Shown: positions 32,811-51,456, counted from the stretch's first letter. The stretch: 64,000 nt of DNA from a virus (IMGVR_UViG_3300006151_000005:32001-96000); one strand, 5' to 3'. Numbers and translations are program-made. Notes: a model not told the origin generated them from the sequence alone.

Positions 32811-32883
32811 CGCGGGTTGGAGCAGTTGGAAGCTCGCCAGTTTAACTTGCTGGAGGTCGTCGGTTCGAGTCCGACACCCGCTA
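32811..32883 (+). tRNA. Initiator-type tRNA with Val anticodon AAC
   Basis: Cloverleaf CGCGGGT/ACCCGCT+A (C1xU72 mismatch, G2:C71, C3:G70, A73); D-stem GAGC/GCTC (A11:U24); anticodon stem CCAGT/GCTGG with loop TTAACTT (AAC at 32844-32846); T-arm GTCGG-TTCGAGT-CCGAC; CCA not encoded. Confidence 0.85.
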
Positions 32884-32911
32884 CAAATAAAATCACTTAC
32901 AAACAAAATCA

Positions 32912-33283
32912 ATGAAAAAGTTAACCCTACAAATTGACAAAAAGTGCTTTCAGGCAATTCTGAAAGGCGAGCAGAAAGTCGAGCATCGGAACGTGTATCC
33001 CAATAACGCCAAGAAGTATGTCATCGAAGAAGACAAGACTGATGAAAACGGCGAAGCCATCACGGTTGTAACACCGGTTCACTACGATGCCCTCACCCTT
33101 ATCAATGGTCGCCGCAAGGATGCGCCCCGTCTGACCGTGGAGGTCGTATCGGCTGAATTTGTCGTACTGACCGACGAAGACGGCAATGATTTGACCTTTG
33201 AAGAGAATGGCGAAGTGTACTATGTTTGTCAGGTATGGTACACCCTCGGAAAGGTTCTTGAAACCGCCAACATCAACGAATAA
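32912..33283 (+). CDS. ASCH domain protein
   Basis: LTLQIDKKCFQAILKGEQKVEHR (GxKxxExR-like). Confidence 0.75.
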   Translation: MKKLTLQIDKKCFQAILKGEQKVEHRNVYPNNAKKYVIEEDKTDENGEAITVVTPVHYDALTLINGRRKDAPRLTVEVVSAEFVVLTDEDGNDLTFEENGEVYYVCQVWYTLGKVLETANINE

Positions 33284-33310
33284 TCATTAACCCTTTAACA
33301 CTATAAGTGA

Positions 33311-33511
33311 GTTAGACGTAGAATTGATAACAACTATGGCCCCCGTCGGAACATGAACGGTGCCGGTGCCGGTGGCCGACTCGTAGCCCGTCGCACCCCT
33401 GCGGGCGTAGTTGCTGGTCGTAGCCAGCTCGGAAATCGTGAACAGCGTCGCGCTGACCTCCGCGCAGCCTTTGCTGACCAAATCCGCGCCGCTGGTGGAA
33501 CAACCGGCTAA
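33311..33511 (+). CDS. Arg/Gly-rich small protein with putative GTT start
   Basis: VRRRIDNNYGPRRNMNGAGAGGRLVARR...GGTTG*; in-frame TGA immediately before GTT; fills the gap between ASCH and the PAPS-reductase-like gene. Confidence 0.65.
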   Translation, partial: VRRRIDNNYGPRRNMNGAGAGGRLVARRTPAGVVAGRSQLGNREQRRADLRAAFADQIRAAGGTTG

Positions 33512-33521
33512 ACCCTAAATC

Positions 33522-34307
33522 ATGGCAACGCAGAATGTAAACAAGTACGCAGAAACCATGTCAATAATTCGGCGTATCCGTCAACAGACGGATACTGCCG
33601 TTTTATATTATTCAGCCGGCGGAAAGGACGGCATCGCTTTGCTTGATATGTTAGCCCCGGTTTTCAAAAAGGTTATCTGCTATTACATGTGGCTCGTGCC
33701 GGGTCTTGACCATGTGAAGCCCTATCTGCAATGGGCGGTACGGAAATACCCCAACGTTGAGGTTCGCCAGATTCAGCACTATCAGCGCGACTATTACGAC
33801 CGCTTCGGATTTTTTCAGGATGGCGAGGGCGACCCAAGCATCAAGCCCCGAAAGGTAGGCGAGCTTGAGGAGGAGGTCAGACAGGAAACCGGCATCAAAT
33901 GGGCGTTCAGCGGAATGAAAGGCGTTGACGGTTACATGAAGCGTATGCGCCTTTTGACTTTCAAGAAGCGCAACGGCACATACATGACAGACAAAGGAAT
34001 GGTTTACCCCCTTGCCGTCTGGACGAACAAGGAGGTGCTTCGCTATATCGAAATGCGGAATCTTATCAAGCCTTTTGTCTATAGCCCCAAAGATGTAAGT
34101 CAGGGCTTCGGCATCGATTTGCGCTCCTTGCTTGTGCTTCGGAAACGTTTCCCCCGCGACTACGAGCGCACCATCCGCGAATTTCCCTTTTGCGAAAAAC
34201 TCATCTTCGACTATGAAAACGGCATACTGCCATACGGTCAGGAGAAAGAGGTCATGGAAATCATCAAGCGCATAGAAACCGAATCAGAAGAATCAGACGA
34301 AGTATGA
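33522..34307 (+). CDS. PAPS-reductase-like (PP-loop) protein
   Basis: YYSAGGKDG PP-loop variant, GMKGVDG...R, YPLAVWT. Confidence 0.75.
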   Translation: MATQNVNKYAETMSIIRRIRQQTDTAVLYYSAGGKDGIALLDMLAPVFKKVICYYMWLVPGLDHVKPYLQWAVRKYPNVEVRQIQHYQRDYYDRFGFFQDGEGDPSIKPRKVGELEEEVRQETGIKWAFSGMKGVDGYMKRMRLLTFKKRNGTYMTDKGMVYPLAVWTNKEVLRYIEMRNLIKPFVYSPKDVSQGFGIDLRSLLVLRKRFPRDYERTIREFPFCEKLIFDYENGILPYGQEKEVMEIIKRIETESEESDEV

Positions 34308-35188
34308 AGCCGAACAAAATCAAACAGGCAGAACAGCGCACCGTCAAGCGAAGCGAAATCAACTTTGCTTCCTATAATCCACGTACCATCAGTGACGAGG
34401 CGCGAAAAAAGCTCAAGAAAAACTTACAGACCGTCGGCCTGCTGGGTGGCGTAGTCTGGAACATACGCTCCGGCAATCTTGTATCGGGTCATCAGAAAGT
34501 CAGCATCATGGATGCCGTGAACCGGTACGACGCGGAAACGGGCGCAAATGATTACGAATTTCGTGTTGAGGTCGTTGACTTCGACGATAAGACGGAAAAA
34601 GAGCAGAACCTTTTTATGAACAACCGAGCCGTGCAGGGTACATACGACGATGATATGCTGCGCGAGCTTCTTCAAGGAATAGACTATACCAATGCCGGCT
34701 TCGACGATACCGATATGCAGCTCCTCGGTCTTGGCGATTTCGGCGACTATGATATGGGCGATATGTTCGGCGACGATGGCAACGATGCCACGGATGGCGG
34801 CGATGCTGACGAGCCGGGCGAATCGACGGAAATCAAAGACTGGTCAAAAGATAATGTCGTTGGCGAGCGTGAAGACCTTGCAATCCACGATGAAATGACA
34901 AAGGAAAGCGGCGAGAATCATAAGCTCGACCGCAGCGCGGATTTTTATCAGGATAGCGAGGCCAACCAGATAGCCCGCCACAACGAAGTGCAGAAAATCA
35001 AAGACCGCATCGCAAGTCAGAACGATGTGAACAAGGACGGCGGCATGTTGTCCTATGTTGTCATCAGCTTCAAAACTCCGAGCGAGAAAGTGCGCTTCAT
35101 GGAAGACTACGGATTTGACCCTATGGCAAAGTACATCAACGGCGAAGAATTTGTAAACAAATTGGAATTTGGCGATGATGAAGATTAA
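34304..35188 (+). CDS. ParB-like nuclease domain protein
   Basis: YNPRTI...LKKNL...VWN...NLVSGHQK; acidic C-terminus. Confidence 0.8.
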   Translation: MKPNKIKQAEQRTVKRSEINFASYNPRTISDEARKKLKKNLQTVGLLGGVVWNIRSGNLVSGHQKVSIMDAVNRYDAETGANDYEFRVEVVDFDDKTEKEQNLFMNNRAVQGTYDDDMLRELLQGIDYTNAGFDDTDMQLLGLGDFGDYDMGDMFGDDGNDATDGGDADEPGESTEIKDWSKDNVVGEREDLAIHDEMTKESGENHKLDRSADFYQDSEANQIARHNEVQKIKDRIASQNDVNKDGGMLSYVVISFKTPSEKVRFMEDYGFDPMAKYINGEEFVNKLEFGDDED

Positions 35189-35281
35189 CGCAAAAATTTA
35201 ACTTTATTCTTTAATTTAGTATTGCGCAATTAAAGAATTTTGTTTAACTTTGCATATTATACAGACACTGACAACAGAGAT

Positions 35282-35737
35282 ATGAACTACCGATTTTTAA
35301 GCAGCATAACCGACGCGGAGGTTGCGGATTTTCGCAACAGGCTCGCGGCTGAACTGGCGACACGCATGACCGGCGACGGCAAGCGTGTTATCAGTGACGA
35401 GGCCATCGGGCAGGAGGTCAACCTTAACATCTCCACGGAAGATGCGAAGAAATATCTGCAAAGCAACGACGCGGAGAATTATGACTACGCGCAGCTTGCA
35501 GACGTTATCGCGGCCAAGTACCGCACATTCAGCGATGAAGACATCATGGCCACGCGCAAGGCGATGGTCGATAAATTCATGGCTCTTGCCGATGAGTATG
35601 GCTGGGATAAAGAACAGGCACGACGCGATGCCAAAAAGGAGTTTTACGACAACCTTTCTGACGGAACTATCCTTGAACTTCTGCGCAATGGCGAGTCGAT
35701 TGAGGATTATGTCGAATATGTAAGTATTTACGACTGA
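35282..35737 (+). CDS. Hypothetical protein
   Basis: ATG after a TTG...TAACTTTG promoter (~35222-35252). Confidence 0.6.
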   Translation: MNYRFLSSITDAEVADFRNRLAAELATRMTGDGKRVISDEAIGQEVNLNISTEDAKKYLQSNDAENYDYAQLADVIAAKYRTFSDEDIMATRKAMVDKFMALADEYGWDKEQARRDAKKEFYDNLSDGTILELLRNGESIEDYVEYVSIYD

Positions 35738-35743
35738 TAGCGA

Positions 35744-36430
35744 GTTAAAAAGCCACGTAAGACAGATTATAACGCGAGAGTCACAAAGGCACTCAAGGGA
35801 AAGGGCGTACCTCACCTTGAAGAGCCGATGTACCGCGTATCCGCGTCGGCTTTTATAAAGGCTATAAGACGCGGCAAGGCATCGCAAGGCAGGAACGGCT
35901 GGATGGTTGACCTGCATAGCAAAAGCGAATACAAGCGGATGCGATGCTTTCTTACTCCGGACGGAAAGACAGGTGTAGCGATAAAACGCGATGGGGATGT
36001 AGTGTCTGTATTCTCCACCAGCGGAAAACGAGGCGCAATGGCAAAAATCATACCGTTTGCGGTCGCTAATGGTGGTCGCAAACTGGATTGTTATGCTTTC
36101 TCGGATGGCCGCAGTTCACTTCACAACATGTACGGAAGATTCGGCGCAAAGGCTCACGGCAAAATGACCTTTGACCCGCAATATAATCCTGTTTTCCAAC
36201 GCACGGCGCAGGCCAATCCCGGTATGCGCAGACCCTCTCATGTCGTGGCGATGACGCTGCCGGGCAGTCTTGCCGGTGTCATGCGGGCTTACAACGCTGA
36301 CAGGAAGATTGACCTTGGGCGCGTGAGGTCGTATAATGATTACGACAAGATGATGGATGACCGAAACGCGCATCTTGCACTACGCGGAAAGTCAAGCGGT
36401 GTCAGAGGCGCACTTGGCGGCGGTAAATAA
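35744..36430 (+). CDS. Basic protein (possible GNAT-like fold) with putative GTT start
   Basis: Frame opens TGA TAG CGA GTT AAA AAG... = VKKPRKTDYNARVTKALKGKGVPHLEEP then MYRV (track ORF 35828); no ATG/GTG/TTG in these 28 codons. Confidence 0.65.
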   Translation, partial: VKKPRKTDYNARVTKALKGKGVPHLEEPMYRVSASAFIKAIRRGKASQGRNGWMVDLHSKSEYKRMRCFLTPDGKTGVAIKRDGDVVSVFSTSGKRGAMAKIIPFAVANGGRKLDCYAFSDGRSSLHNMYGRFGAKAHGKMTFDPQYNPVFQRTAQANPGMRRPSHVVAMTLPGSLAGVMRAYNADRKIDLGRVRSYNDYDKMMDDRNAHLALRGKSSGVRGALGGGK

Positions 36431-36452
36431 CCAACCCTAACACTACAAGAAT

Positions 36453-37046
36453 ATGGCAAAGATTGAAGAAATCATCCCGTTCATCCTTTACTTTGAAGCC
36501 GGCGTAAACAAACGCTATCTTTCACTTCCTCCCGAACAGATATTTGAGCAGGCGAAAAAGACGGGCTTCGCAAATGACCCCGACGATGCCGGCGGCGCGA
36601 CCATGTGCGGTATCACGATAGCGACCTACAAGGCGTACGGCAAGCGGAAAGGCTATCCCGTACCTACGGTGTTCAGCCTGCGTAACATCACATACAAGCG
36701 TTGGCGCGACGTACTCAAGACGCTTTTCTGGGACAGATGGAAAGCCGATGAAATCAAAAGCCAAGCCCTTGCGAACAACCTCGTCGATTGGGTGTGGGCA
36801 AGCGGCGTGAACGGCATCAAGATACCGCAGAGGCTTCTCGGCGTGACACAGGACGGAATTGTCGGCCCAAAGACGATAGCCGCAGTCAACGCAGCCAACG
36901 AAGCGGAACTATTCACGAAGATTTACGAAGCCCGCATCAATTTCGTGGATGGCATCGTGCGCAGAAAGCCGAGCCAGAAGAAATTCATCAAGGGCTGGAA
37001 ACGACGCATCAACGCTATCACCCTATCCGGGCTGAAATTCACATAA
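36453..37046 (+). CDS. Endolysin, glycoside hydrolase family 108 + peptidoglycan-binding domain
   Basis: E...NDPDDAGGATMCGIT; DWVWASG; QDGIVGPKT; FIKGWKRR. Confidence 0.88.
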   Translation: MAKIEEIIPFILYFEAGVNKRYLSLPPEQIFEQAKKTGFANDPDDAGGATMCGITIATYKAYGKRKGYPVPTVFSLRNITYKRWRDVLKTLFWDRWKADEIKSQALANNLVDWVWASGVNGIKIPQRLLGVTQDGIVGPKTIAAVNAANEAELFTKIYEARINFVDGIVRRKPSQKKFIKGWKRRINAITLSGLKFT

Positions 37047-37077
37047 TGCTAAAACCGCAGAAAGGAGGTGTTCTAAA

Positions 37078-37137
37078 ATGAAATCGCGCAAATCGTGTGG
37101 AGGCAAGAAGAAGCCCGGAAAGGGCGGTAAGTGTTGA
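37078..37137 (+). CDS. 19-aa basic peptide MKSRKSCGGKKKPGKGGKC
   Basis: Preceded by a perfect SD AAAGGAGGTG (37061-37070); followed by a hairpin. Confidence 0.45.
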   Translation: MKSRKSCGGKKKPGKGGKC

Positions 37138-37155
37138 AAACCCTAAAACAACAAC

Positions 37156-37184
37156 GGTCAGTCGGAATAAACCCCGGCTGACCA
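37156..37184 (+). terminator. Stem-loop after the endolysin/peptide genes
   Basis: GGTCAGTCGG...CCGGCTGACC; no clear U-tract. Confidence 0.4.
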
Positions 37185-37205
37185 TCACCCTTAAAATACA
37201 AGATA

Positions 37206-37493
37206 GTTAGACGCAGACGTACACCATCAACAAGAACTATGGCATACTACACCGGTAGCTATGCAGACCAGAACATGATGTCACCATACGGAATGGGATA
37301 TTCTCAGTCACAGGTGGCAATCAACAATCGCGCACAGGCTCTCCGTCGTCGTGTTGGCGATATGAACGTTTCATCATCCCAACGGCAAAGGTATTACGAT
37401 ATAATAGGCCGAGCCAATGGCAATATGTTTCAGGCAATAAGAACTGCAACGGGGGGGCAAATGACCACTTCCCAATTAGGTTATGCGTGTTAG
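37206..37493 (+). CDS. Small Arg/Gln-rich protein with putative GTT start
   Basis: GTT AGA CGC AGA CGT... = VRRRRTPSTRT in frame with track ORF 37239; same GTTAGACG opening as 33311. Confidence 0.55.
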   Translation, partial: VRRRRTPSTRTMAYYTGSYADQNMMSPYGMGYSQSQVAINNRAQALRRRVGDMNVSSSQRQRYYDIIGRANGNMFQAIRTATGGQMTTSQLGYAC

Positions 37494-37553
37494 AGAACCG
37501 GTCATCTCGCCGTCACATGACGGAAATAGCAAGTTCGACTCTTGCACACGCAG
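37484..37553 (+). tRNA. tRNA-like RNA with a shrunken anticodon loop
   Basis: TGCGTGT/ACACGCA acceptor; GAGA/TCTC D-stem; CCGTC-ACAT-GACGG; GCAAG-TTCGACT-CTTGC T-arm. Confidence 0.7.
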
Positions 37554-37584
37554 CATAGAAGATTAAAATTTCATTATCACGACG

Positions 37585-38256
37585 ATGCCGAAGAAGCGAA
37601 TTAGTAGCAAAACACCGCGCAAGCCCAAAGCCACACCCTCGTTTGATTATGAGAGTGAGGAATTTTTGTCGCAGGTCGATGCACTTGCTTTTGAGGGCTT
37701 TTACAATACGGAAATTGCTGACGAACTGAACATTAGCCGATACGAATTGGAAATGGCGATTTCACAATGCGAAAAATTGCGCAACACGATAGCGTCTGCA
37801 CGCGAGCGTGCGCGTGCGCGAGGCGCAGAAATGCCATCTCCGGCTATGTTTGCAAAGGTCTGGGCGAAGTGTAACGGAAAGCGCACTCAGCTGATGAAAG
37901 AATTTGGAATCGGCTGGACGAAGCTACAATCGTGGCTGGCACAAGAACCTATTTTCGTCGATATTATGGCGGAACGCGACCTTGAATTTCTGGAACAGAT
38001 AGATGTCGCCAGTCGCATCCTTGCCTTGGGTGGCGTAAAAGGAAAAGACAATTTCGCCGGCTGGAGCAGATACCCCGATAGTTGGATGATTCGCTTTCAT
38101 CTGAATACACTCGGAAGACGCTACGGCTATGGCGAGAATCCCATACAACCGGAAGTTGAAGATGACGGTATTCCAAAAAATGTTGAGCAGGGCATCGACA
38201 TTGATAGCTGGATAAAGCAAGAAGTGGAACAGAAGAAACGGGATAAAGAAGAATGA
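37585..38256 (+). CDS. Terminase small subunit (putative)
   Basis: HTH (YNTEIADELNISR), FHLNTLGRRYGYGE; coupled to TerL. Confidence 0.7.
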   Translation: MPKKRISSKTPRKPKATPSFDYESEEFLSQVDALAFEGFYNTEIADELNISRYELEMAISQCEKLRNTIASARERARARGAEMPSPAMFAKVWAKCNGKRTQLMKEFGIGWTKLQSWLAQEPIFVDIMAERDLEFLEQIDVASRILALGGVKGKDNFAGWSRYPDSWMIRFHLNTLGRRYGYGENPIQPEVEDDGIPKNVEQGIDIDSWIKQEVEQKKRDKEE

Positions 38257-39551
38257 TTATCAACCATGAGATATATTACCCCCTCTATACTGACAAGGAA
38301 CATTTCATCATCCTTGTCACGGGTGGTCGTGGCTCTGGTAAATCATTCGGAATCGGCGGTTTCTTGGAACGCCTATCATTTGAGCTGAAACGCAAGGGTC
38401 TATCCAAAGCGGAATCAGACAAGATTGTGCATAAAATCCTCTATACGCGCTACACTATGACCAGTGCGAGCATTTCCATTATACCTGAATTTTTGGAAAA
38501 GATAGAGCTTGACGGCACGACCCGGTACTTCCATACGACCAAAACCGACATCATAAACAAGATGACCGGTAGCCGTATTATGTTCCGTGGCATCAAAACA
38601 TCATCTGGCAATCAGACCGCAAAGCTGAAATCCATCCACGGCATCACGACCTTTGTATGCGATGAGGCCGAGGAGTGGACTTCCGATAGGGAATTTGAAA
38701 CAATCGCCTTTTCAATCCGTCAGGTTGGAATCCAGAACAGGATTATCATCATTATGAACCCTACGGATAGCAACCACTTCATCTATCAGAAATACATCAA
38801 GGACACGCACAGGATAGAATACTTTGACGGAGTGCCGGTGCAGATTTCCACGCATCCTCAAGTGCTTCATATCCATACAACGTATCTTGACAATAAGGAA
38901 AATCTTTCGGAAGAATTTATCAGGTCGGCTCAAGAAATGAAAGAGCGCGACCCGGAACGCTACGGCCACATCTTCATGGGCAGATGGGCAGACGTAGCCG
39001 AGGGTGCGGTCTTCAAGAAATGGGGCATTGTCAGCGAATTTCCAAAGAACTGCAAGCATGTTGCTCGCGGTCTGGACTTCGGATATACCAACGATGTCAG
39101 CGCGTGTGTAAAATGCGGCGTAATCGGCAACGACCTTTACATCGACGAACAGATATTTGAAACCGGACTACTTTCCAAAGACCTCATAAGGAAATTAAGC
39201 GAGGATGATTCATTCGTTTACGCCGATAGTGCAGACCCGCGACTGATTGACGAAATAGCTCTCGGCGGCATAATCATCTACCCCGTGGCGAAGCCAGCCG
39301 GAAGCATCATTGCCGGTATTGAGAAGATGAAATCCTTTGACAACATCTTTGTTACGAAGCGGTCACTGAACGTGCAGGAAGAATTGCGCAACTATGTATG
39401 GGCGAAAGATAAGGATGGCAATTACATCAACATGCCGGAAGATGCCAATAACCACTCTATCGACGCAACCCGGTATTATGTGCTTGGCTGCATCCTCGGC
39501 AAGATTCTCAAGCCGAAGAAAGTCAAGAAGTCAGATTTAGGAATATTCTAA
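38253..39551 (+). CDS. terL: Terminase large subunit (PBSX family)
   Basis: GGRGSGKS, FVCDEAEE, MNP, GLDFGY, DSADP, NHSIDATRY. Confidence 0.93.
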   Translation: MIINHEIYYPLYTDKEHFIILVTGGRGSGKSFGIGGFLERLSFELKRKGLSKAESDKIVHKILYTRYTMTSASISIIPEFLEKIELDGTTRYFHTTKTDIINKMTGSRIMFRGIKTSSGNQTAKLKSIHGITTFVCDEAEEWTSDREFETIAFSIRQVGIQNRIIIIMNPTDSNHFIYQKYIKDTHRIEYFDGVPVQISTHPQVLHIHTTYLDNKENLSEEFIRSAQEMKERDPERYGHIFMGRWADVAEGAVFKKWGIVSEFPKNCKHVARGLDFGYTNDVSACVKCGVIGNDLYIDEQIFETGLLSKDLIRKLSEDDSFVYADSADPRLIDEIALGGIIIYPVAKPAGSIIAGIEKMKSFDNIFVTKRSLNVQEELRNYVWAKDKDGNYINMPEDANNHSIDATRYYVLGCILGKILKPKKVKKSDLGIF

Positions 39552-39562
39552 CAACACCAGAT

Positions 39563-41020
39563 ATGAATAACTACTTACAGCAAATCTTAACCTATTTCCG
39601 AAACCTCACGCTAAATGCGTCCGGGGTTAGCCGCGACCTGTATCAGCTTTTGCAGGATAAGGACATCAGCCGCGCATTGGATATGCTCCAGAACCGCGAT
39701 GATGAAGTTGACCAAGCAATCAAGGAGTATAATCCGCAGACGCATGACGTGATGAAACGCCCCAACAAATTCCGTAAAGGCGATGACCCCTATATCACGG
39801 AAAAGTTGCCACGCACACGCGCCCGCTACATCAACGACATCGAGCTATTCTTCTTGCTCGGCAATCCTATTGAATGGAAGAAAGAAGAGGGCGACGATGA
39901 AGCCTTTTCGCTATTCACAGATTTTCTGGAAGAGCAGCACTTCAATTCACGCATCCGTCAGGCGAAACGACTTGCCGGCGCGGAAACCGAGTCAGCCCTT
40001 ATCGCGCACATCTACCGCGATGATGATACAGGCGAGCGTCGCGTCAAGCTGAATGTATTGGCGCGTTCCAAAGGCTATCGCCTGCGCCCACTGTTCGACA
40101 CCATCGGCAACATGATCGCCTTTGCATACGGATACGTGACGAAAGAACATGGCCGCAGTATTCAGCACTGGGATTTCCAAACACCCAAAATCCTTGCTTA
40201 CTGCCGTAAGGCGCAAATCGGATGGGAAGTCGAAATCTATCCCAATCCCACCGGCAAGATAAACGTCATCTACTTTCAGCAGCCAAAGGCATGGGATGGC
40301 GCGGAAGCCCGCATCAACCGCGAGGAGATGCTTGACAGTAAGACCGGCGACACCAACAATTACTTTTCCGACCCCATCGCCGCCGCCACTGCCGACGTCA
40401 TTCAGACCATGACCGACCCCAACAAGCCCGGAAAGCTCATTCAGCTTACAGGCGAAAAGTCAAGGTTTGAGTACGTCAACCCACCGCAGGCATCGCAGAC
40501 ACGCGACGCGGAAAAATCCGACCTTTCAAAGAGCATCCTTTTTGATACCTACACCCCGGATTTTGACACCGAGGCCATGCGTGGCTTCGGCACGCTTTCC
40601 GGTGTGGCAATCCGCAACGCTTTCATTCTTGGCTACATCAAGCGCGACAACCGCAAAGAAATCTACGATGAACTTGTGGGCCGTTTCCGCAATATCGTTA
40701 TCGCCATACTTGCATACGAGCATCCCGATAAGAGAAAAGCTCTGGAGTCACTCAAAATCAAATTTGAATTTGCGGAACCATTCGCCGATGACAAGCAGGC
40801 GAAGTGGCAGTCCATCGCAAGCCTGTATCAAGCCGGTCTGATTTCGTTGGAAACCGCCGTGACCATGTTGTCGCTGACCGATGCACCAGAAGAAGAAATC
40901 GCTCGCCTCCTCGCGGCTTCCGCACAGAAGCAACAGCAGGGTCAGCAGCCTTCCGCAAACAAAGAAGACAATCCGGCACAACCCCCTGTAAATATTCCGC
41001 GAGAACCTATATCAGCATAA
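39563..41020 (+). CDS. Portal protein (SPP1 gp6-like)
   Basis: Follows TerL; FLLGNPI, NNYFSDP, LSGVAI, ISLETA...EEEIARL. Confidence 0.85.
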   Translation: MNNYLQQILTYFRNLTLNASGVSRDLYQLLQDKDISRALDMLQNRDDEVDQAIKEYNPQTHDVMKRPNKFRKGDDPYITEKLPRTRARYINDIELFFLLGNPIEWKKEEGDDEAFSLFTDFLEEQHFNSRIRQAKRLAGAETESALIAHIYRDDDTGERRVKLNVLARSKGYRLRPLFDTIGNMIAFAYGYVTKEHGRSIQHWDFQTPKILAYCRKAQIGWEVEIYPNPTGKINVIYFQQPKAWDGAEARINREEMLDSKTGDTNNYFSDPIAAATADVIQTMTDPNKPGKLIQLTGEKSRFEYVNPPQASQTRDAEKSDLSKSILFDTYTPDFDTEAMRGFGTLSGVAIRNAFILGYIKRDNRKEIYDELVGRFRNIVIAILAYEHPDKRKALESLKIKFEFAEPFADDKQAKWQSIASLYQAGLISLETAVTMLSLTDAPEEEIARLLAASAQKQQQGQQPSANKEDNPAQPPVNIPREPISA

Positions 41021-41176
41021 TATCTGCCATTGTTGTCATATCTGGATGCGTCACGTCTGAGTTAAAGGCGTGGCGCATTGTTTTACGCTATCAGCGCAAA
41101 ATCAGCGCGTTAAAGCAAACACTTTTATTAACAATAGTTAAAAGTAAGTATTTACTTTAATATTTTCGCTAAAATA

Positions 41177-41208
41177 TTTGGTGGATAAAAGTAAAAGCAT
41201 TAACTTTG
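41177..41208 (+). promoter_or_regulatory. Promoter/operator copy 4
   Basis: TTTGGTGGATAAAAGTAAAAGCATTAACTTTG. Confidence 0.7.
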
Positions 41209-41246
41209 CATCGTAATCAATAACAAACCCCAATAAGTAAGAAGTT

Positions 41247-41510
41247 ATGAAACTTAAAGACAATGGCCAAATCGCAATCGACTCGGCAGACATACTGAAA
41301 CAGAATCGCTATCGTTTTGAAATCGATACAGAAGACATCGTGATGGGCTTCGCTAAAACGATGAAAACGACAACGCGCAACGTTCAAAAAGCAATCAACA
41401 TGATTAAAAAGGTGTGCAACGACTGCGGCACTTTCATCTCGCCCAGTGTGCGCATTGTAAGCGTCAGAATGTATCAGAACAACGAACTCGTTAAATCCCT
41501 TAACGCTTAA
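41247..41510 (+). CDS. Hypothetical early protein
   Basis: First ORF after the promoter. Confidence 0.55.
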   Translation: MKLKDNGQIAIDSADILKQNRYRFEIDTEDIVMGFAKTMKTTTRNVQKAINMIKKVCNDCGTFISPSVRIVSVRMYQNNELVKSLNA

Positions 41511-41515
41511 TCAGT

Positions 41516-43197: not shown

Positions 43198-43255
43198 AAT
43201 TACTTGATGAAACAAAGATATTGATTACAAGCGTCTTCATACGCACTTATTGGGT

Positions 43256-43287
43256 AGCCTCGGCACTGCGCCGGGGCTTTTCTTTTG
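43256..43287 (+). terminator. Intrinsic terminator
   Basis: AGCCTCGGC-ACTGC-GCCGGGGCT followed by TTTCTTTT. Confidence 0.7.
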
Positions 43288-43346
43288 CACTGGCGTTCCG
43301 CGATTAAATTTGATGCTTATTTTTCTTGAAAAAAGTTGCTGAAAAA

Positions 43347-43378
43347 TTTGTACAATTAAAGTAATTACTTTAACTTTG
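43347..43378 (+). promoter_or_regulatory. Promoter/operator copy 5 (perfect palindrome)
   Basis: TTAAAGTAATTACTTTAA at 43356-43373 overlapping TAACTTTG. Confidence 0.75.
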
Positions 43379-43404
43379 CGGTGTAATCAATAACACCAAT
43401 ATAA

Positions 43405-44414
43405 GTGAACAGTATGGATACGACTAAAGAACTGAACGCAAGACTTGAGATAGTAAACCTCAAGGGATACAGATTCAACACGCCCAAAGGCATCTGTACG
43501 ATGCGCGGCTTCGCCTTTTACATCAAGGGCAAAGGCTTTGTTAGATTCAAGCACGACCTCCCCGGCATACCTTATGCGCCCTGTGGTGGCAGAAAGGCGT
43601 TGCTTTCAATCCTGAACAGTGGCGGCTTCGTGAACTATGACAGCTTAGAATTTACCAACCCCATCAGCGAAAACTAACACGACCATGACAACAGAACAGC
43701 GCAAAGCGATAGCTGCGGAAGCAAAGATACCATTCTGTAACGTGGCAGCTTTCAGAAATCCCGACAATGCAAAGAGTTATCTTCGGCACACGGTCAAGAT
43801 GAACATGATGATGCGCGTCAAGGGCGAATACTGGATAGTGTCGCCTGCGGAAGCTGAACGCCTCAATATACTTGGTTACGAATACGCTAAATTTTAATCG
43901 CCATGACAGCAAAGCAATCCCTTAAAAATTACATAGCCTATCTTATCGGCAAGGGTCAGAGTATCGGCTTACTTGAAGCAGTCAAGGCAGACGTACCACG
44001 CACCGACGGCATCGCCGGCACACGCGAATTTGAAATCACGGAACTTTACCGCGATGGTCGCGGTGTTTGCCACATCAGCGACGGCATCAATCGCCGCAGT
44101 GTTCACGAACTTACGGAAAGCCAGTGCAAGCATATTCTTGTTAACCTTTAATCAGCAGCATCATGGGTATATTAAGACTTAAACGAGTTCACGGAACGGA
44201 TTACGAAAATTTCAATGCCGGCTATGCGCTCTACGAGGATGAAGCCGGTCGCCAGTATAGCGGATATGTAGGTCGCGGAAACACGCCAGACCCTCGCTTC
44301 TGGGCTACACTAAATCAATATTGGGAACGTGACCTCAGTATCTTCACACGCGAATATTGCGAATATCAGGGCATCGACCACCAACAGTACACGCAGATTG
44401 AAATCATCGCCTAA
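43405..44414 (+). CDS. Four small early proteins (43405-43677, 43685-43897, 43903-44151, 44163-44414)
   Basis: Closely spaced ORFs after the promoter. Confidence 0.55.
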
Positions 44415-44563
44415 CAATCTCGCCATCAGTGAAAAGTGGAAGCCGACGGCTCTAATCGGCTTATAATAGGCATGTAGCTACGTTTGCCGGGATTTGAATA
44501 GCAAAAGTTAAAGCATTTACTTTGTTAAATAATCTTAAATAAAAGTATTTTCTTATATTATTA

Positions 44564-44595
44564 TTTGGTAGATTAAAGTATTTACTATAACTTTG
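44564..44595 (+). promoter_or_regulatory. Promoter/operator copy 6
   Basis: TTTG...TAAAGTATTTACTATA/TAACTTTG. Confidence 0.7.
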
Positions 44596-44621
44596 TAACC
44601 GTAATCAAAACCCAATAAGAT

Positions 44622-47057
44622 ATGAAGACTACAAACAACCCCTACAAGATTGAACATGTCAGCGATTTTGGCATGGCCTATTATCAGGTAGTGCGCAAGC
44701 GCGATGAAGCCATTCTCTACGCCAATAGCAACATTGACAACATCGCCTCTTTCATTCTTGACGAGGGCATCGACGTGGCCGGCTTTGACGCAGTGCCAGA
44801 ATTTGCAAACAATCACGTTTTCTAAATATGAACGACCATGAACGCTACAATAGAACTTATACAGGAGCCCACCCCAAGGGGCGAATACAAGCCGACAACG
44901 CTTGACGAGCAAAAGGCTAAAGCTGACATTCTCGTTACGGCGATTGACAGCCACTATGAAATCGTGGTAAAGAACCCAAGTATAAAGCTCAAGGGGCGCG
45001 GCATAAAGCGCAGCAAGTATATCGGCAACATCTTCTATGTGACCGAGCACGTCTATGAACAGCTATGCAAAGAATACAACGTAATGTGTGACTTCTAAAT
45101 CATCCCGGCTATGACATCAAAAGAGAAGATATACGTGCAAATCCTTGAAACACGGAACGCGATAGACGAGCTGAACGGCAAAGAGCCACGCTACGACATC
45201 GACAAGTGCCTACGCACCAACTATGCGCAGACGCACACAAGGGCAGAACTTAACGCAGAACTGGGCATCGCCCAATCGTGCCTACGGAACGACCGGAGCA
45301 AAAAGGCGATTGAAAAATGGTACGGAACACCCGCCGGCATCGCCTACCGCGAAGAGCGCGAGGCCAAAATCAAGAACCTACGGCGCGAAGTCTTGAATAC
45401 CCACCGCGATACTACAAGCGACGTGCATCGCTTCATTTATCAGCATCTCGGCAAGCAGTGGCGTGTGCGCGTCATCGGCGAAAGAGCCATGACGATAGAA
45501 CTACTTAATAAGGACGGAAAGAGCCAATTCGGTTACGACATCGAGCTTTACTACGGTCACGAAACACGCGACCCGGATAAGTTTGAAATCAGTTGCTCAA
45601 GTGTCGGCGGCTACGACCCCACACAGGACTCAAGCAGACTTGACTATTTCATAGGCCTGACCACGCTTTCAAAGTATGACGTGGCCACGGAACTAAAAAG
45701 CCTCTTGAAGTCTTTCTCGGATTATTGCTACCGACAGGGCAATGAAATCTACCGACTTGAAAACGAACTTGAAAACCCACCTTACAATGGCTAAAAAGAA
45801 AGAACCGGTATTATGCTACTTTCATTTCATGTATAACCAGTGGAATGAACAGACGGCACAAAAGGTATTTGCAGACGCTTCGTGCGGCTGGGAGTACCTA
45901 TGGCAGAAGTGGATGCGTTTCTGCGATGAATACGGCTACTACGGTGCGATAATGATGTATTACACCGAGGGTCTTGACTACGGACTACAAGAAAAATTAT
46001 CAACAGCAGCATACGAGTACTACAATGACAAATAAAACCAACTTACCACCCATCGACCTCAAGCAATTTGAGGCCGACACACGGTTTGACATTCGCGACG
46101 CGATGCCCGAACTTGCCGTGTTCACAATCTTATGGCATAACATGGGCTACGGAACCGACCCCGTAGGAGTCGCCGAAACTACAAAGGCGCACATGCTGAC
46201 GCTGCCCTTTGTCTTCGCAATACGCGACCGACTGCGCGAAGACGGCAGATGGCCGGAAGCGCACAACCTTGAGAACTGTGGCATCCTTACGTCGATACTG
46301 ATGCTCAAGGCCGCGAAGATTGAACCGGTAAAGCTGAAAGAAATGCGCGACACAATCTCGCGTGAGGCAATCGCCCATAGATTCTTTTAACGCCCATGTT
46401 CAACGAATTTCAAACCATAAAGACGCTTGCGGAAGTAAGGGCTTTCGCAAGCTATCTTTACTTTGACCTTTCGACCACGTTTCATCCTGACAATGATTTT
46501 GCGGAATACGTGACCCAAGACGGTAATCCGGCGTTTACGCCAATCCGCGCATCCCGGCTTAACGAGCGCATGTCCGAATGTCGTGAGGTCTGCGAGGCTT
46601 TCGGTGTCGACGTTTGCGACTTCATGGATGTTGCCGGCATCTATTTTGAAGCCATCGCATCCGGGCAAGATGTAGAACAGGCAAGAAACGCCGCTTATTT
46701 CGCGTCTGACGGCTCGGAATAGGTCAAAACGATAAGATGTACCACTCGCACGTCAAACGCCGTTTATTGCGCTTCTTTCGCGCTGATACGGCTATTTTAT
46801 CCCGTCGCCCACATACGACATAACGATAACCGCAACAAAAAACCGACATAGATATGACATTAGATAAATTTCAGCAGCAATCAATTGCCCACGTCAAATG
46901 GGGCTGGACTGGCGACTACGCCGCGCACTTGTTAAGCCGGTTCAATGACCGCAAGGAATGTAGCAAGATATTCAGCCGTTGCCGACTGGTCGCATATCGC
47001 AACTGCATTTCAATCGGTGATGCCCGTCATCATCTGATAAGTGCCGGCAAGATTTGA
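44622..47057 (+). CDS. Seven small early proteins (44622-44825, 44838-45098, 45111-45794, 45787-46035, 46025-46390, 46396-46722, 46854-47057)
   Basis: Consecutive same-strand ORFs of unknown function. Confidence 0.55.
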
Positions 47058-47564
47058 AACGCCTGAACAAAGACGGAAAAAGTGACGTTATATTTCTTTC
47101 ATTCTTTCATTCTTTATTATACTCTCTATATTCTTTATTCTTGTTTATGGCTGTAAAACCCGATTTAAGTAAAATAGCACCTTTGGAACGCGCTGATTAT
47201 TAAGGTGTTGAACGGATATTTTGCTGGCGGCTTGTTGGCTATTGGATGTTTCTTTGATGGCTGGCGTGTTTAAGTAAACATAGCCTACTGCACTGAAAAT
47301 AAAAGAGTTTGTCGATGTATTTTGTTGGTCATTGACTCCGATTTACTTAATAAGGTTTATTAAGTAAAAACGCACAAAAATCGCGGAAAAATCGCCTTGA
47401 TGGTTGTCTGATGTTGCTTTGATGGCTATTTGTTGGCTATAAAATTAAGTAATTTGTTATAATATGCTGATATACAGATTAAAACAAATATATTTTGTTG
47501 GCTGAAAAAATGCGCCGAGTTATGTCGTAACCGGCGCATCGTGATTTTGCTGAAATATAAGGAT

Positions 47565-48185
47565 TTACGGCTTTCGTTTCCCAAGGATAAACGAATGGTA
47601 GTCACCGAACTTCCGGCGCACGATATACGCTCCTTTTTCAAGTCGTTCCCATCCAGCTTTCACATCTTTGATGTCGATTCCGAGCGCCTTTGATACCATG
47701 ATGTCAGTTACACAGAAAGGCGCGTCACCGGCTGATTTTATTCCATTCCGAAGATAGGCGTATATCGCTACATCGTAGGCGGTTAACGAGATATTCGGAA
47801 TGGGTAACACCTTGCCATCGGCAAGCTCTTGGCGCATCTGGTCGGCCAGTCGTTTTGACTCCGCGAATACGGATTCAAGGCTTTCAACCGGTCGATGCGC
47901 CTGCTGACGTTCAAGTTCCATCCAGCGCAACACAAGTCGCGCACGAGATTCATCGTTGAACTTGGTGGCGATGTAGAGGCACTCTTCTTTCGTTAGATTG
48001 TAGCAAGGGAGGACGCGCCCGGTTGGGTCGGTGTATTCACTAAGCGTAAAATTGCGCCCAGTAACCTTATACCACGCTTCTTCCATTTTGCGGATTGAAC
48101 GCATCAGGTCTTTATGACGTTTCTCCGCTACTTCTGCAATTAAGAGCGATGTCATTGTGGGTTGTTGAATTGGTAATGTTTCCAT
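47565..48185 (-). CDS. Rha-family phage regulatory protein with C-terminal winged-helix-like domain
   Basis: MTSLLIAEVAEKRHKDLMRSIR...NFTLSEYTD...PCYNLTKEECLYIATKFNDESRARLVLRW. Confidence 0.85.
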   Translation of the reverse strand: METLPIQQPTMTSLLIAEVAEKRHKDLMRSIRKMEEAWYKVTGRNFTLSEYTDPTGRVLPCYNLTKEECLYIATKFNDESRARLVLRWMELERQQAHRPVESLESVFAESKRLADQMRQELADGKVLPIPNISLTAYDVAIYAYLRNGIKSAGDAPFCVTDIMVSKALGIDIKDVKAGWERLEKGAYIVRRKFGDYHSFILGKRKP

Positions 48186-48234
48186 TTGTTGTCGGTTTGT
48201 GGACGACCCATGTTTCAGAGTCGCCCGGATTAAT

Positions 48235-48498
48235 TTAAGCTGCGGCTACTGATTCTATCAGTTCCGTATCTATAGCTGCGAATGGTACGTCAATTTCATT
48301 GCCGTCCTCATCGCACGTCCATACATTGTAGCTGAATATCTCAAGAGTGGGTTTGTTCTGCGCGTACACGGATACGGTGATGTCATTACCGACCTCTATC
48401 GTGAGGTTGAAATATCCATGCACAACCGGGTTGAGGGCGGCCACGGCTGCGGCTACGGCAAGCGATGCCGTTTTTGAGTCGAATTTGATTGCTTGCAT
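48235..48498 (-). CDS. Hypothetical protein
   Basis: ORF within the minus-strand operon. Confidence 0.5.
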   Translation of the reverse strand: MQAIKFDSKTASLAVAAAVAALNPVVHGYFNLTIEVGNDITVSVYAQNKPTLEIFSYNVWTCDEDGNEIDVPFAAIDTELIESVAAA

Positions 48499-48526
48499 AG
48501 TCTTTGATTTTATGGGGTTGATGTTG

Positions 48527-48856
48527 TTATACAATTTTCACAAGATTGCACTTCTTGAAAGAGCGAAATTCCTGTTTGTCGGTGTCGAAGTACACCTGAA
48601 CGGTTTCGTTGGCTCTGCGGCCTGTGCCTTGCGTTTCTGGCAGACGGTGAGGGTCAAGTGTGCCAAGCGCTTGTCTTAACGTGCCGTCGATTTTCTGAAA
48701 GAAGAATTGCACGATACCGCCACGCATAGCCTTTGTTACTTTGGCGTTGAGCCATGCTACCTTGAGGGCTTCTGCCATCGTGTAACCGTTACGTCTGACG
48801 AACATCCACGCGGTCTGCATGATTTGTCGCAATTTTGATTTTCTATCGTTGCTCAT
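48527..48856 (-). CDS. DUF2693 / WYL_2 SH3-fold protein
   Basis: IMQTAW...ALKVAW...FQKIDGTLRQALGTL...YFDTDKQEFRSF. Confidence 0.75.
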   Translation of the reverse strand: MSNDRKSKLRQIMQTAWMFVRRNGYTMAEALKVAWLNAKVTKAMRGGIVQFFFQKIDGTLRQALGTLDPHRLPETQGTGRRANETVQVYFDTDKQEFRSFKKCNLVKIV

Positions 48857-48900
48857 ATTCTTGGTCTTTAATTGTTGTTTAACTTTGATGATGCAAAGAT

Positions 48901-49068
48901 ATAGGATAAAATCTATATCTCAAAATAAATTATAGGGTAAATTCTATTTCTTAACAAAGATTAACAATAGGTTAAACTCTATGCTTTAATTAAAAATATA
49001 GAATATAAGTTGTGAGTTTAATTATTTCTTCTTAACTTTGCGCCGTAAAATTATAGAACAAACCCTAT
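48901..49068. promoter_or_regulatory. Divergent promoter region with four ATAG-N8-CTAT operators
   Basis: 48901 ATAGGATAAAATCTAT, 48932 ATAGGGTAAATTCTAT, 48967 ATAGGTTAAACTCTAT, 49053 ATAGAACAAACCCTAT. Confidence 0.7.
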
Positions 49069-49336
49069 GGATATAAAACAAAAAATCAAAATGCAGGGCT
49101 TCACCATTAGTGAAGTCGCATCAAAGATGCCAAATGGCAATGGCGGATTAGGGATAAGCCAACCATCCCTGTCGGCTATTATCAACGGAAATCCCACGGT
49201 CAATAAGTTGAAAGACATCGCCGACATAATTGGACTTACCTTATCTGAACTTGTTTCAGAAGATGATGGAATGAATATGATAGCGGCTTGCCCTCATTGT
49301 GGAAAGCCAATAACAATCAAAACTACAATAGAATGA
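49067..49336 (+). CDS. XRE HTH regulator with zinc ribbon (paralogue 2)
   Basis: ISQPSLSAIINGNPTVNKLKDIADIIG...CPHCG. Confidence 0.82.
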   Translation: MDIKQKIKMQGFTISEVASKMPNGNGGLGISQPSLSAIINGNPTVNKLKDIADIIGLTLSELVSEDDGMNMIAACPHCGKPITIKTTIE

Positions 49337-50055
49337 AACATTTACTTAAACCAGCAATCATCCTTGTTTTGGGAATGATTGTCTTATATCTCCAATCATG
49401 CGACCGACCTAATCAAGTTGATAATACGCTATTTGGGTTTCGTTTTGGGCAAACACAAATGGAGGTTGATAGCGTTGCGTCTAATAGAGGTTTCCGAAAA
49501 CTTGCATGGGTCAATTCCACCGGTTATGAGGGACGACTTGATACGCTTGGTGTTAGATGGATGCAGATAGAAGCAAGGTTTGAAAAAGATTCTCTCTGTT
49601 CCATTGCACTACTCGCGCATAAGGATTCGGAAGATGATGGTCGTGTTTTCGAGAGTAAGATTAACGATGTGCTGGAAAACCATTTTCATGTATTCGGAAA
49701 GCGGTTAGAGCAAGAACCGTATGAAGAATATGGAGCATGGATTTTTGGCAATTACGTTGTTTCGTTTATCCCCAAAGGAGAATATTTTGCAGTTTTGCAA
49801 ATATGCCCATATTCCAAAGATAATGCTAAAACGGCAAGGCTTGAATACATCGACTATAAAATAGACGAGAACTTAAAGAAGCTCGCTAACGCTATGGCTG
49901 GTTATATTAAGGCAAGAGAAAGTGGTCAATCTACCATGAGGGAAGTTTATGTGGATGATGTACGCTCTGCAAATGGTTTTCTAAATAAACATTACGACCT
50001 TATGACCCCCAGACAAAAGGAACTCTTTGACAAACTAAGGAATATTACTTATTGA
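49333..50055 (+). CDS. Putative lipoprotein
   Basis: Signal peptide MKHLLKPAIILVLGMIVLYLQSC; lower GC than flanks. Confidence 0.65.
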   Translation: MKHLLKPAIILVLGMIVLYLQSCDRPNQVDNTLFGFRFGQTQMEVDSVASNRGFRKLAWVNSTGYEGRLDTLGVRWMQIEARFEKDSLCSIALLAHKDSEDDGRVFESKINDVLENHFHVFGKRLEQEPYEEYGAWIFGNYVVSFIPKGEYFAVLQICPYSKDNAKTARLEYIDYKIDENLKKLANAMAGYIKARESGQSTMREVYVDDVRSANGFLNKHYDLMTPRQKELFDKLRNITY

Positions 50056-50076
50056 TTTATTTGGAATAAGCAAATA

Positions 50077-50115
50077 AGCGCATCAGTCATCACGACCGGT
50101 GCGCTTTCTTTGTTT
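50077..50115 (+). terminator. Intrinsic terminator
   Basis: AGCGCATCAGTC...GACCGGTGCGCT followed by TTCTTTGTTT. Confidence 0.6.
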
Positions 50116-50175
50116 ATAAAAAAGGCGACACGCCTCTCAGCGCATCGCCACAGGAAAGGGTGTGTGAAAAAGGGG

Positions 50176-51456
50176 TCATTGTTGTTTGATTTCAGCAGTC
50201 ACGCCGTCAGTGCCGGTCACGTCTGCCGGATTAATCGCTTTCGCGGAATCGGGATTTTCAACAGCCATCGACAATTCTAAATCGCAGAAGCCTTTGCAAG
50301 CTCCGCGATAGCCGTTGAAAAATTCAATGGCGGTCATGCGTCGCTTGTTCGGCATCTGCAATTCAAGCACGGAAATAAGCTCGTCGCCACAGGCGATGTA
50401 TAACTTGCGGTCTTGCCAGAACAACTCGCCGGGTGCATGATAGCCACGCGGTATGCCGGTCTTTTCCGTCTTGAATATCTTGACGCTTATTGCCTGCTTT
50501 CCAAGCATTGCCAGCGAAGTCCATGCCGATGGGATGGGCGTAAGTGCGCGTATGAAGTCATAGACGTAATTGGCAGGCTTGAGCCACGGAATGATGCAGT
50601 CCTTTCGGTGTAGCTTCGGCGCGTAGCAGGGCTGGATGAAGTCGCAGATAAGCTCCGATTGTGGGATGGGTCTGCAAGAATGGGCTATGCGCTGAATTGC
50701 ATCGTCCATCATTTCCGCACCGGCTATGCGCAATTTGATGTGAACGTCTTCCGCGTTGTCATCCTCATCGATGCCGATGGCGAGATTGTTGATGATGCCG
50801 CCAGTATCGATTTTGTCTTCAAGCATGAACGTAGTCACGCCGGTCATGCTGTTACCGTCCTTGATAGCGGATGCGATGGTGGAAGCACCGCGATACATGG
50901 GCAGCATGGACGAATGGAGATTGATTGTTCCCCACTTCGGAATGGTGTATAGCGCACGTGGCAGTATTCTGAACTCCACCACTACGCCAAGCGTAGCATG
51001 AAGATTGTGGATGTGCCGCAGAAACCTGTTGGAGTCGAGCTTCCGTGGCTGAAAAACAAGGATACCCATAGACTCTGCATAGACCTTGACCGCAGACTTG
51101 CGCACGACCTTTCCGCGACCGAAGGGCTTATCCTCCATCGTTACCACGGCGGCGACATCATAGCCGCGCTCTACAAGTATCTTGAGGGTTGGTAGGGCGA
51201 ACTGTCCGTTTCCGAAAAACACGATGCGGATGCCCTTCCGTTCTACCGGCTTGGACGAGTCGTATTCCGGATAGGCTACGATTTCCGTTTCATCAGCAGC
51301 CGTGTAACCGCCATTACGCAGACGCACCAAGTATGAGCCATCTTCTACCGGGTATAGAATCTGACCCTGACTTAGTATTCCTTTGTCTTCATTCGCGCAT
51401 AACAGGCTTGATGGAACTTGTACCGATTGCCCTACGCGATAGATGGGCGTTTTCAT
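50176..51456 (-). CDS. fmt: Methionyl-tRNA formyltransferase with ~75-aa N-terminal extension
   Basis: IVFFGNGQFA, VVTMEDKPFGRG, FQP, INLHSSMLPMYRGA, GVTTF...IDTG, YAPKL, IRALTPIPSAW, LQMPNKRRM: both Fmt domains; ATGA-coupled to the XRE gene. Confidence 0.9.
   Translation of the reverse strand: MKTPIYRVGQSVQVPSSLLCANEDKGILSQGQILYPVEDGSYLVRLRNGGYTAADETEIVAYPEYDSSKPVERKGIRIVFFGNGQFALPTLKILVERGYDVAAVVTMEDKPFGRGKVVRKSAVKVYAESMGILVFQPRKLDSNRFLRHIHNLHATLGVVVEFRILPRALYTIPKWGTINLHSSMLPMYRGASTIASAIKDGNSMTGVTTFMLEDKIDTGGIINNLAIGIDEDDNAEDVHIKLRIAGAEMMDDAIQRIAHSCRPIPQSELICDFIQPCYAPKLHRKDCIIPWLKPANYVYDFIRALTPIPSAWTSLAMLGKQAISVKIFKTEKTGIPRGYHAPGELFWQDRKLYIACGDELISVLELQMPNKRRMTAIEFFNGYRGACKGFCDLELSMAVENPDSAKAINPADVTGTDGVTAEIKQQ

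Follow-up and report, generated by a model that had tools for sequence, protein, structure and literature searches.

Can a virus own a start codon, together with the tRNA that reads it? This question is raised by a 64,000-nucleotide stretch of phage DNA (IMGVR_UViG_3300006151_000005:32001-96000, here called the window), which spans bases 32001-96000 of one virus record of 105.5 kb and encodes a tRNA combining features of an initiator tRNA (tRNA-fMet) with the valine (Val) anticodon AAC. To our knowledge, all natural translation systems have one initiator tRNA, which reads AUG or its near-cognates. The analysis presented here makes it very probable that this phage encodes a second initiator tRNA, with a Val anticodon, and uses it to start genes of its own at GUU. 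Positions are those of the window unless the genome or another locus is named.

A tRNA with initiator features and a valine anticodon

The tRNA lies on the plus strand at 32811-32883. It is called as tRNA-Val(AAC) by ARAGORN (32811-32884) and matches Rfam family RF00005 over 32811-32883 with 48.6 bits, against a gathering score of 29. The marks of an initiator can be read directly from the sequence, namely the C1xU72 mismatch, the pairs G2:C71, C3:G70 and A11:U24, and A73. The description given in an initial annotation of the window, a tRNA-fMet body with anticodon AAC, is therefore borne out. The anticodon loop is U32 U33 A34 A35 C36 U37 U38, the anticodon stem consists of C27:G43, C28:G42, A29:U41, G30:C40 and U31.G39, and CCA is not encoded. 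The tRNA does not have the CAU anticodon of tRNA-fMet (AAC here, GAC or TAC in relatives). Nor is it built as an elongator tRNA-Val, which would have a Watson-Crick 1:72 pair, a purine at position 37 and a pyrimidine-purine 11:24 pair; it has the 1x72 mismatch, U37 and A11:U24 in their place. A mismatch at 1:72 disfavours EF-Tu, as established for E. coli tRNA-fMet. A35, C36 and A73 are the identity elements for valyl-tRNA synthetase (ValRS), and all three are present.

Relatives of the locus were gathered through the large terminase (TerL), giving 80 viral loci and 65 bacterial genomes. A tRNA of the same type is found 3-5 kb upstream of the terminase in 52 of these viral loci and 31 of the bacterial genomes. 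In all, 84 loci carry it, made up of 47 viral contigs, 31 bacterial genomes, 5 related phage records and the window itself; in 81 of them it lies upstream of TerL. The anticodon is GAC in the majority, and otherwise AAC or TAC. Alignment of 31 distinct members shows that A11, A35, C36, U37, U38 and A73 are invariant, which includes all three ValRS elements. As in initiators, no member has a Watson-Crick pair at 1:72 (C.A, C.U, C.C and U.C are seen there), A11:U24 occurs in 31/31 members, and G2:C71 and C3:G70 each occur in 30/31, with one compensated A:U at 2:71. The cloverleaf cells are 99.7% paired, with compensatory changes on both sides at 13 of the 20 pairs. Judged by its invariant positions, its pairing and these compensatory changes, the family is functional and under selection, and is no remnant.

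A covariance model of the family was run on three host genomes (L182, L183 and L184), where the prophage copy scored highest (88-97 bits), followed by the host initiator tRNA(CAU) at 75-77 bits, one further tRNA(CAU) in one of the hosts at 68.8 bits, and the remaining tRNAs at 59 bits or below. When aligned with the initiators of these Muribaculaceae and Bacteroides hosts, the phage tRNA differs from them essentially in the anticodon arm alone. The acceptor stem (CGCGGG..CCCGC-N-A, with the 1x72 mismatch, G2:C71, C3:G70 and A73) is shared, as is A11:U24, and the D and T arms are nearly identical. In the anticodon arm the phage has NAC where the host has CAU, U37 U38 where the host has A37 A38, and has lost the three anticodon-stem G:C pairs that the host retains in full. 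Nucleotide 72 (32883 in the window) is the same as that of the host initiator in all three hosts, being U in Muribaculaceae bacterium Isolate-036, C in Lepagella muris and A in Bacteroides mediterraneensis. It may be that the host methionyl-tRNA formyltransferase (Fmt), or something else that reads the acceptor end, selects for this match, or that the gene was captured from hosts repeatedly. Descent of the phage gene from a Bacteroidales tRNA-fMet, with the acceptor and D-stem initiator marks retained, forms part of the overall reading and shares its high probability.

A further tRNA(CAU) was seen in Isolate-036, on contig C55 (L186:1500-1572, minus strand), scoring 68.8 bits with the family model. 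It has an A1xC72 mismatch together with the phage type of anticodon arm (U31.G39, loop UU-CAU-UU), so initiators of the phage type with U37 U38 may also exist with a normal anticodon. Its flanks contain unidentified open reading frames (ORFs) only, and the ORF overlapping the start of the tRNA has its first ATG after 27 codons.

Genes that open at valine codons

Three ORFs between the tRNA and the terminase gene open at GTT, at the positions proposed initially, and the Val start of each is backed by homologues. ORF1 (33311-33511, plus strand) encodes a very basic protein of 66 aa (VRRRIDNNYGPRRNMNGAGAGGRLVA...) and has its GTT directly after a stop codon (TGA GTT AGA CGT AGA, 33308-33322). ORF2 (35744-36430, plus strand) encodes 228 aa with no assigned function, in the context TAG CGA GTT AAA AAG (35738-35752). 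ORF3 (37206-37493, plus strand) encodes a basic protein of 95 aa (VRRRRTPSTRTMAYY...), with a probable GTT start in the context ATA GTT AGA CGC AGA (37203-37217). Each also has a downstream in-frame ATG, as had been cautioned, at a distance of 14, 28 and 11 codons respectively.

Conservation of ORF1 begins exactly at the Val codon, and the start codon fits the anticodon. Its tblastn alignments to approximately 50 loci start at residue 1, and the codon there stands directly after TGA, AGA or CGA. This codon is GTT wherever the tRNA has AAC, GTC wherever it has GAC, and GTA in the TAC locus. In the latter (L009, the sole TAC locus) the syntenic ORF1 opens TGA GTA and is without any ATG. The internal Met chosen by gene callers sits within a conserved motif (GPRRNMNGAG), and the residues upstream of it are conserved as amino acids, with synonymous or conservative changes (VRRRI, VARRIN, VQRRIN). 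Read-through from the upstream gene was considered and rejected, as three in-frame stops lie in between.

Homologues of ORF2 open TGA GTC in L024, which has a GAC tRNA, and AGA GTT in L008, which has AAC. In both, the first ATG is codon 54 (in L008 counted from the GTT, index 56 of the open frame), and it falls within a conserved motif. The plus strand of ORF2 is better conserved as protein than the overlapping minus-strand ORF. For ORF3, homologues in the GAC loci L029 and L130 open AGA GTC or TGA GTC AGA AGA AGA (VRRRISDRTMSY), and that of L116 (AAC) opens GTT (VRRKRTPSNRTMAFY). These alignments indicate that ORF3 probably starts at GTT, but it is the weakest of the three cases because of the conserved ATG 11 codons downstream. 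The ESM Atlas has the ORF1 protein only from residue 15 and the ORF2 protein only from residue 54, each read as Met; standard gene calling therefore truncates both. No function was returned for either protein by the ESM Atlas.

In most loci, 2-5 paralogous small and very basic proteins per phage are encoded between the tRNA and TerL (e.g. L130:3675-6488 and L137:4079-6167). They are 50-100 aa long, have the N-terminus V-R-R-K/R and a Val start throughout, and often end in G-L-S-G-G. They may be packaged DNA-binding proteins.

A whole-genome scan for further GTT starts added two genes beyond the span of the initial annotation. The first is the major capsid gene, at genome positions 97961-99049, just past the end of the window (L081:1961-3049), which opens TGA GTT. 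Its first ATG is codon 93, and PHROG and Pfam capsid homology begins from residue 58-60; standard gene calling would cost the protein up to 92 residues. In capsid homologues of 40-64% identity (L095-L100) an ATG occupies the exact column of the GTT, with VKQSFYFDYAQKYFP in the phage against MEKSFYFEYAQKFFP in the homologues (VKQSFYFDY vs MEKSFYFEY). A GTG or TTG occurs at codon 21 of the capsid ORF. As phages with an ATG-start capsid gene carry the tRNA too, use of GTT by the capsid is clade-specific and not diagnostic. Bacteroidota largely do without a Shine-Dalgarno sequence, and a Shine-Dalgarno-like GGAGG seen before the capsid start in the relatives L091, L093 and L095 is odd for Bacteroidales.

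The second gene belongs to phrog_38535 (genome 20981-21232; L082:8981-9232) and opens AGA GTT; no ATG occurs in it before codon 26, which is one. Position 2 of the PHROG profile aligns to residue 2 of the protein. Relatives aligned from residue 1 have 38 ATG and 5 GTT in the start column, followed by conserved residues. From these comparisons, at least five phage genes start at GTT, namely ORF1, ORF2, the major capsid gene, the phrog_38535 gene and, probably, ORF3. The GUU-start genes had been proposed as a set private to the packaging region. Their starts stand, but this confinement does not, since the major capsid gene, 33 kb away, is among them.

A sixth candidate, TGA GTT at 56432, was rejected: its ATG at 56474 forms an ATGA overlap with the upstream stop, and residue 15 is where alignment to the PHROG profile begins. 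In a Muribaculum prophage with an AAC tRNA, a ParB-like gene (L143:5086-5847) opens GA GTT (VNSTALSKYIKSE), and its relatives have an ATG a few codons in (..MELSKYIKSE); different clades have thus shifted different genes to a Val start.

Fit of the start codon to the anticodon

Simply tallying the first codons of every stop-to-stop ORF was uninformative, since out-of-frame ORFs swamp the result; the family alignments took its place, together with counts in the interval between the tRNA and TerL. In this interval, leader Val codons preceded by GA were counted on the coding strand, with the minus strand as control. AAC loci gave GTT 39, GTC 3, GTA 5 and GTG 0, and GAC loci gave GTT 53, GTC 86, GTA 29 and GTG 8; the opposite strand gave background counts only. 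The three GTC starts in AAC loci belong to Cys-rich, out-of-frame ORFs in a CC-GTC context and look like artefacts, and the GA-GTA codons of GAC loci were rejected as starts, being mostly internal Val codons of ORF1. In the TAC locus the start codon is GTA. The same gene families occur in GAC loci with either GTC or GTT.

On these counts and alignments, the set of codons is the one predicted from base 34 of the tRNA, where A34 reads U, G34 reads C or (by G:U wobble) U, and U34 reads A. The pattern of Val starts that fit the anticodon recurs in approximately 150 related loci, which exceeds chance. The covariation for which the initial annotation proposed a test was thus found (GTT with AAC, GTC with GAC, GTA with TAC), but strict pairing was not. 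As GAC phages also use GTT, the fit is best described, from the codons observed, as one of compatibility rather than of strict Watson-Crick pairing.

Locus L147 has a G34-to-A34 variant of an otherwise GAC-type tRNA body, together with a GTT start. A GAC relative also has GTT for the same gene, so at this gene GTT may have preceded the change of anticodon. On a quick tree of TerL the AAC anticodon appears in two places.

Sequence context of the Val starts

The dinucleotide GA precedes 30/31 validated Val-start sites, with A at position -1 in 31/31. Among V[RK][RK][RK] starts gathered with no filter on context, 41/48 are preceded by GA; the figure for ATG genes of the genome to which the window belongs is 4/64. 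Within the phrog_38535 family, GTT members are preceded by GA and ATG members by varied dinucleotides.

U37 and U38 are invariant in the tRNA family, so that a pair between A(-1) and U37 and a wobble pair between G(-2) and U38 would be feasible, extending the codon-anticodon interaction to a helix of 4-5 bp. The start signal is probably longer than the codon. For E. coli, experiments that include compensatory A37 mutants support a fourth pair of this kind, joining position 37 of the initiator to position -1 of the mRNA (PMC10018350). The likeness lies in a base 37 complementary to the base before the start codon, the phage U37 facing an invariant A. The E. coli pair is A37:U(-1), with a modest effect (PMC10018350), whereas in the phage the polarity is swapped, conservation is near absolute, and there is a candidate second pair, U38.G(-2).

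A phage-encoded formyltransferase homologue

The window also encodes an Fmt homologue of 426 aa with a 75-aa N-terminal extension, at 50176-51456 on the minus strand. Both Pfam domains are present (Formyl_trans_N, PF00551, 99 bits; Formyl_trans_C, PF02911, 64.5 bits), and TIGR00460 is passed marginally, with 202.8 bits against a cut-off of 201.5. The protein aligns over its full length to E. coli Fmt (1FMT/2FMT), and the catalytic N-x-H, the Asp and the basic loop of the Arg42 region are kept (INLHSS/INVHGS, IDTGG/LDTGD and GRGK/GRGK). The gene can thus be accepted as complete, as first annotated. A peptide deformylase gene was also sought in the genome and none was found.

The co-occurrence of tRNA and fmt anticipated by the initial annotation holds within one clade and fails outside it. 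The gene is present in 6/6 records of the AAC clade and in 0/3 complete or nearly complete genomes of the GAC type that carry the tRNA. An obligatory partnership was therefore rejected, and the phage Fmt is regarded as an accessory of the AAC clade in a system that does not need it. It may raise formylation of the Val-tRNA.

A proposed mechanism and its alternatives

The following sequence of events is proposed. Host ValRS would charge the phage tRNA with valine, and Fmt would formylate it, the host enzyme being joined in the AAC clade by that of the phage. IF2 would then place the tRNA on GUU codons in the P site of the 30S subunit. No fewer than five phage genes without a usable AUG would start in this way, namely those for the major capsid protein, the phrog_38535 protein and the three small or basic proteins encoded next to the terminase, and the GA-GUU helix may stand in for the missing anticodon-stem G:C pairs and for a Shine-Dalgarno sequence. 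The likely result would be structural genes that are translatable only when the phage tRNA is present, which could serve as a timing switch or as an escape from attack on tRNA-fMet.

Several observations weigh against initiation by a Val-anticodon initiator. The phage tRNA has U37, whereas decoding tRNAs very rarely carry a pyrimidine at that position. The three consecutive G:C pairs of initiators (29:41, 30:40 and 31:39) are reduced to G30:C40 alone, as the initial annotation had warned and the reading of the stem confirms, and 21/31 aligned members, all with the GAC anticodon, have C30:G40. In E. coli these three pairs license the 30S-to-70S step, and G30 is essential (PMC5389676). The conserved in-frame ATGs downstream in ORF1 and ORF3 count on the same side, as does the restriction of fmt to one clade. 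The loci are phylogenetically related, so their counts overstate the number of independent events. The tRNA-ORF1 module of L066 (AAC) resembles that of the window and may have moved as a unit, and L066 was not counted as independent for this reason.

A more far-reaching version of the proposal, to which we give about an even chance, is a complete orthogonal initiation channel. Here a second, Val or formyl-Val, initiator and the five-nucleotide signal GA-GUY (Y being U or C), read by N34-A35-C36-U37-U38, would replace both the Shine-Dalgarno sequence and the checkpoint of the three G:C pairs. Structural genes including the capsid gene would have been moved away from AUG and would be untranslatable in a lysogen, or in any cell that does not have the phage tRNA, giving a translational lock and a private start code.

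In a first alternative, the tRNA may start translation at GUY with something other than formyl-valine, that is with unformylated Val, with Met through mischarging, or by a non-standard route that bypasses IF3 and the three-G:C checkpoint and in which the GA-GUY/U38U37-C36A35N34 helix does the selecting. The missing G:C pairs, the very strong conservation of the GA context and the complete GAC-type phages that have no fmt of their own would all fit such a route, and an engineered initiator tRNA(AAC) gave a mixture of Val, formyl-Val and some Met N-termini (10.1101/2021.05.25.445580). However, all known acceptor-stem determinants for Fmt are conserved, nucleotide 72 follows the host, which suggests selection for an enzyme acting at the acceptor end, and the AAC clade has recruited an fmt gene. 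We consider this alternative unlikely.

Considerably less probable is an ordinary phage elongator tRNA-Val whose role is codon supplementation, or which, with its altered anticodon loop, acts as a decoy or a nuclease-resistant replacement, host fMet-tRNA(CAU) reading GUY starts inefficiently as near-cognates. Precedents exist for its parts: two reports describe phage tRNAs whose altered anticodon loops evade host anticodon nucleases (PMC10264068) and rare GUC starts read by the normal initiator, as in Streptomyces sigR (PMC5472188), and in E. coli without an engineered tRNA a GUU-start reporter yields an N-terminal Met (10.1101/2021.05.25.445580). Reading by CAU does not, however, predict a third start-codon base that changes with base 34 of the phage tRNA. 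Throughout the family the 1x72 mismatch, A11:U24 and G2:C71/C3:G70 are retained, and nucleotide 72 follows the host initiator. There is no need for supplementation, because Val codon usage is even across the genome (GTT 390, GTC 470, GTA 388, GTG 394). The most abundant virion protein would, moreover, hang on a very weak start.

That the genes truly start at the downstream ATGs (TTG or GTG for the capsid), with the conserved GA-GTY-AGA-type sequence acting as an RNA or DNA regulatory element, is scarcely credible: although ORF1 and ORF3 keep their ATGs, the capsid ORF has a GTG or TTG at codon 21, and 33311 and 37206 share a nucleotide motif (AGTTAGACGYAGA ... AACTATGGC) with just two copies in the genome, what is conserved upstream of the ATGs is the amino-acid sequence, ORF1 of L009 has no ATG, the first ATG of the ORF2 homologues comes inside a conserved motif, and in the homologues of the capsid and phrog_38535 proteins the GTT column itself is occupied by ATG, with the next residues conserved and the PHROG profile in register from position 2.

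Known counterparts and implications

Altered initiators have a history in the laboratory, and GAC/GUC mutants of the E. coli initiator were reportedly made earlier by the Schulman and RajBhandary laboratories. A full-text literature search for initiator tRNAs with altered anticodons returned engineered ones only, and no natural case. Unlike the engineered initiators, the phage tRNA belongs to a natural gene family that is conserved; its anticodon arm is remodelled, its start sites follow a GA context rule, and certain viral genes are dedicated to it. Phage suppressor tRNAs in gut phages serve stop-codon recoding. They resemble the proposed system in that a phage tRNA alters codon reading for a subset of mostly late genes, but they change the meaning of a stop codon in elongation, whereas here the change would concern which codon can start a protein.

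The closest counterpart is an E. coli initiator tRNA given the anticodon AAC, which starts proteins at GUU with Val and formyl-Val, although formyltransferase and deformylase handle Val inefficiently (10.1101/2021.05.25.445580). It shares with the phage tRNA an initiator body, a Val anticodon and starts at the complementary Val codon (10.1101/2021.05.25.445580). The engineered tRNAs are laboratory constructs that keep the three G:C pairs and A37 and depend on a Shine-Dalgarno sequence.

Should this reading hold, it would be the first natural example of a second initiator tRNA that has an amino acid and a start codon to itself, and its owner is a virus; reassignment of the start codon would join the known kinds of genetic-code variation. 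It would explain why gene callers truncate or miss Val-start genes. It would also be a natural test of which initiator features are required, given the absence of the three G:C pairs, the U37 and the extended codon context, and would give synthetic biology a ready-made orthogonal initiation pair for Bacteroidales. The proposal is directly testable, as two cultured isolates, Muribaculaceae Isolate-036 and Lepagella muris NM04_E33, carry the prophage.

The phage, its host and other features of the window

The terminase used to gather relatives is encoded at 38253-39551 and is followed by an SPP1-type portal (39563-41020). An endolysin is encoded at 36453-37046, and the record also encodes a PAPS-reductase-like protein and a ParB-like protein. 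The terminase is 99% identical to one within the chromosome of Isolate-036 and 88% identical to one in NM04_E33, and at 50-73% identity it has counterparts in prophages of Bacteroides, Phocaeicola, Parabacteroides, Prevotella, Paludibacteraceae and others. The element is therefore a temperate phage whose hosts are mouse-gut Muribaculaceae, one of a Bacteroidales prophage group that is very widespread. A megablast against GenBank phages gave no match.

A second tRNA-like cloverleaf was seen at 37484-37554 (plus strand), overlapping the stop codon of ORF3. Its acceptor, D and T arms are good, and its 'anticodon' hairpin has a loop of 4-6 nt (CCGTC-ACAT-GACGG). It is conserved in L001, L005 and L008, where the stem is kept and the loop varies (CACATG, CACAAG, CATCAG). 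Rfam gave no match to this cloverleaf even at E<=1; a decoy, or a signal for processing by RNase P/Z, is a conceivable role.

A mini-ORF of 19 codons (MKSRKSCGGKKKPGKGGKC; 37079-37138, plus strand) separates the endolysin gene from ORF3 and is preceded by a strong Shine-Dalgarno-like AGGAGGT, again odd for Bacteroidales. A long promoter-like repeat (..TTTAATT..AAAGTAA.n.CTTTAACTTTGC) occurs in many copies on both strands, in the window at 16067-16126, 31702, 35203-35249, 43375, 44506 and 48884, and contains, as judged by eye, the Bacteroidota -7 box TAnnTTTG.

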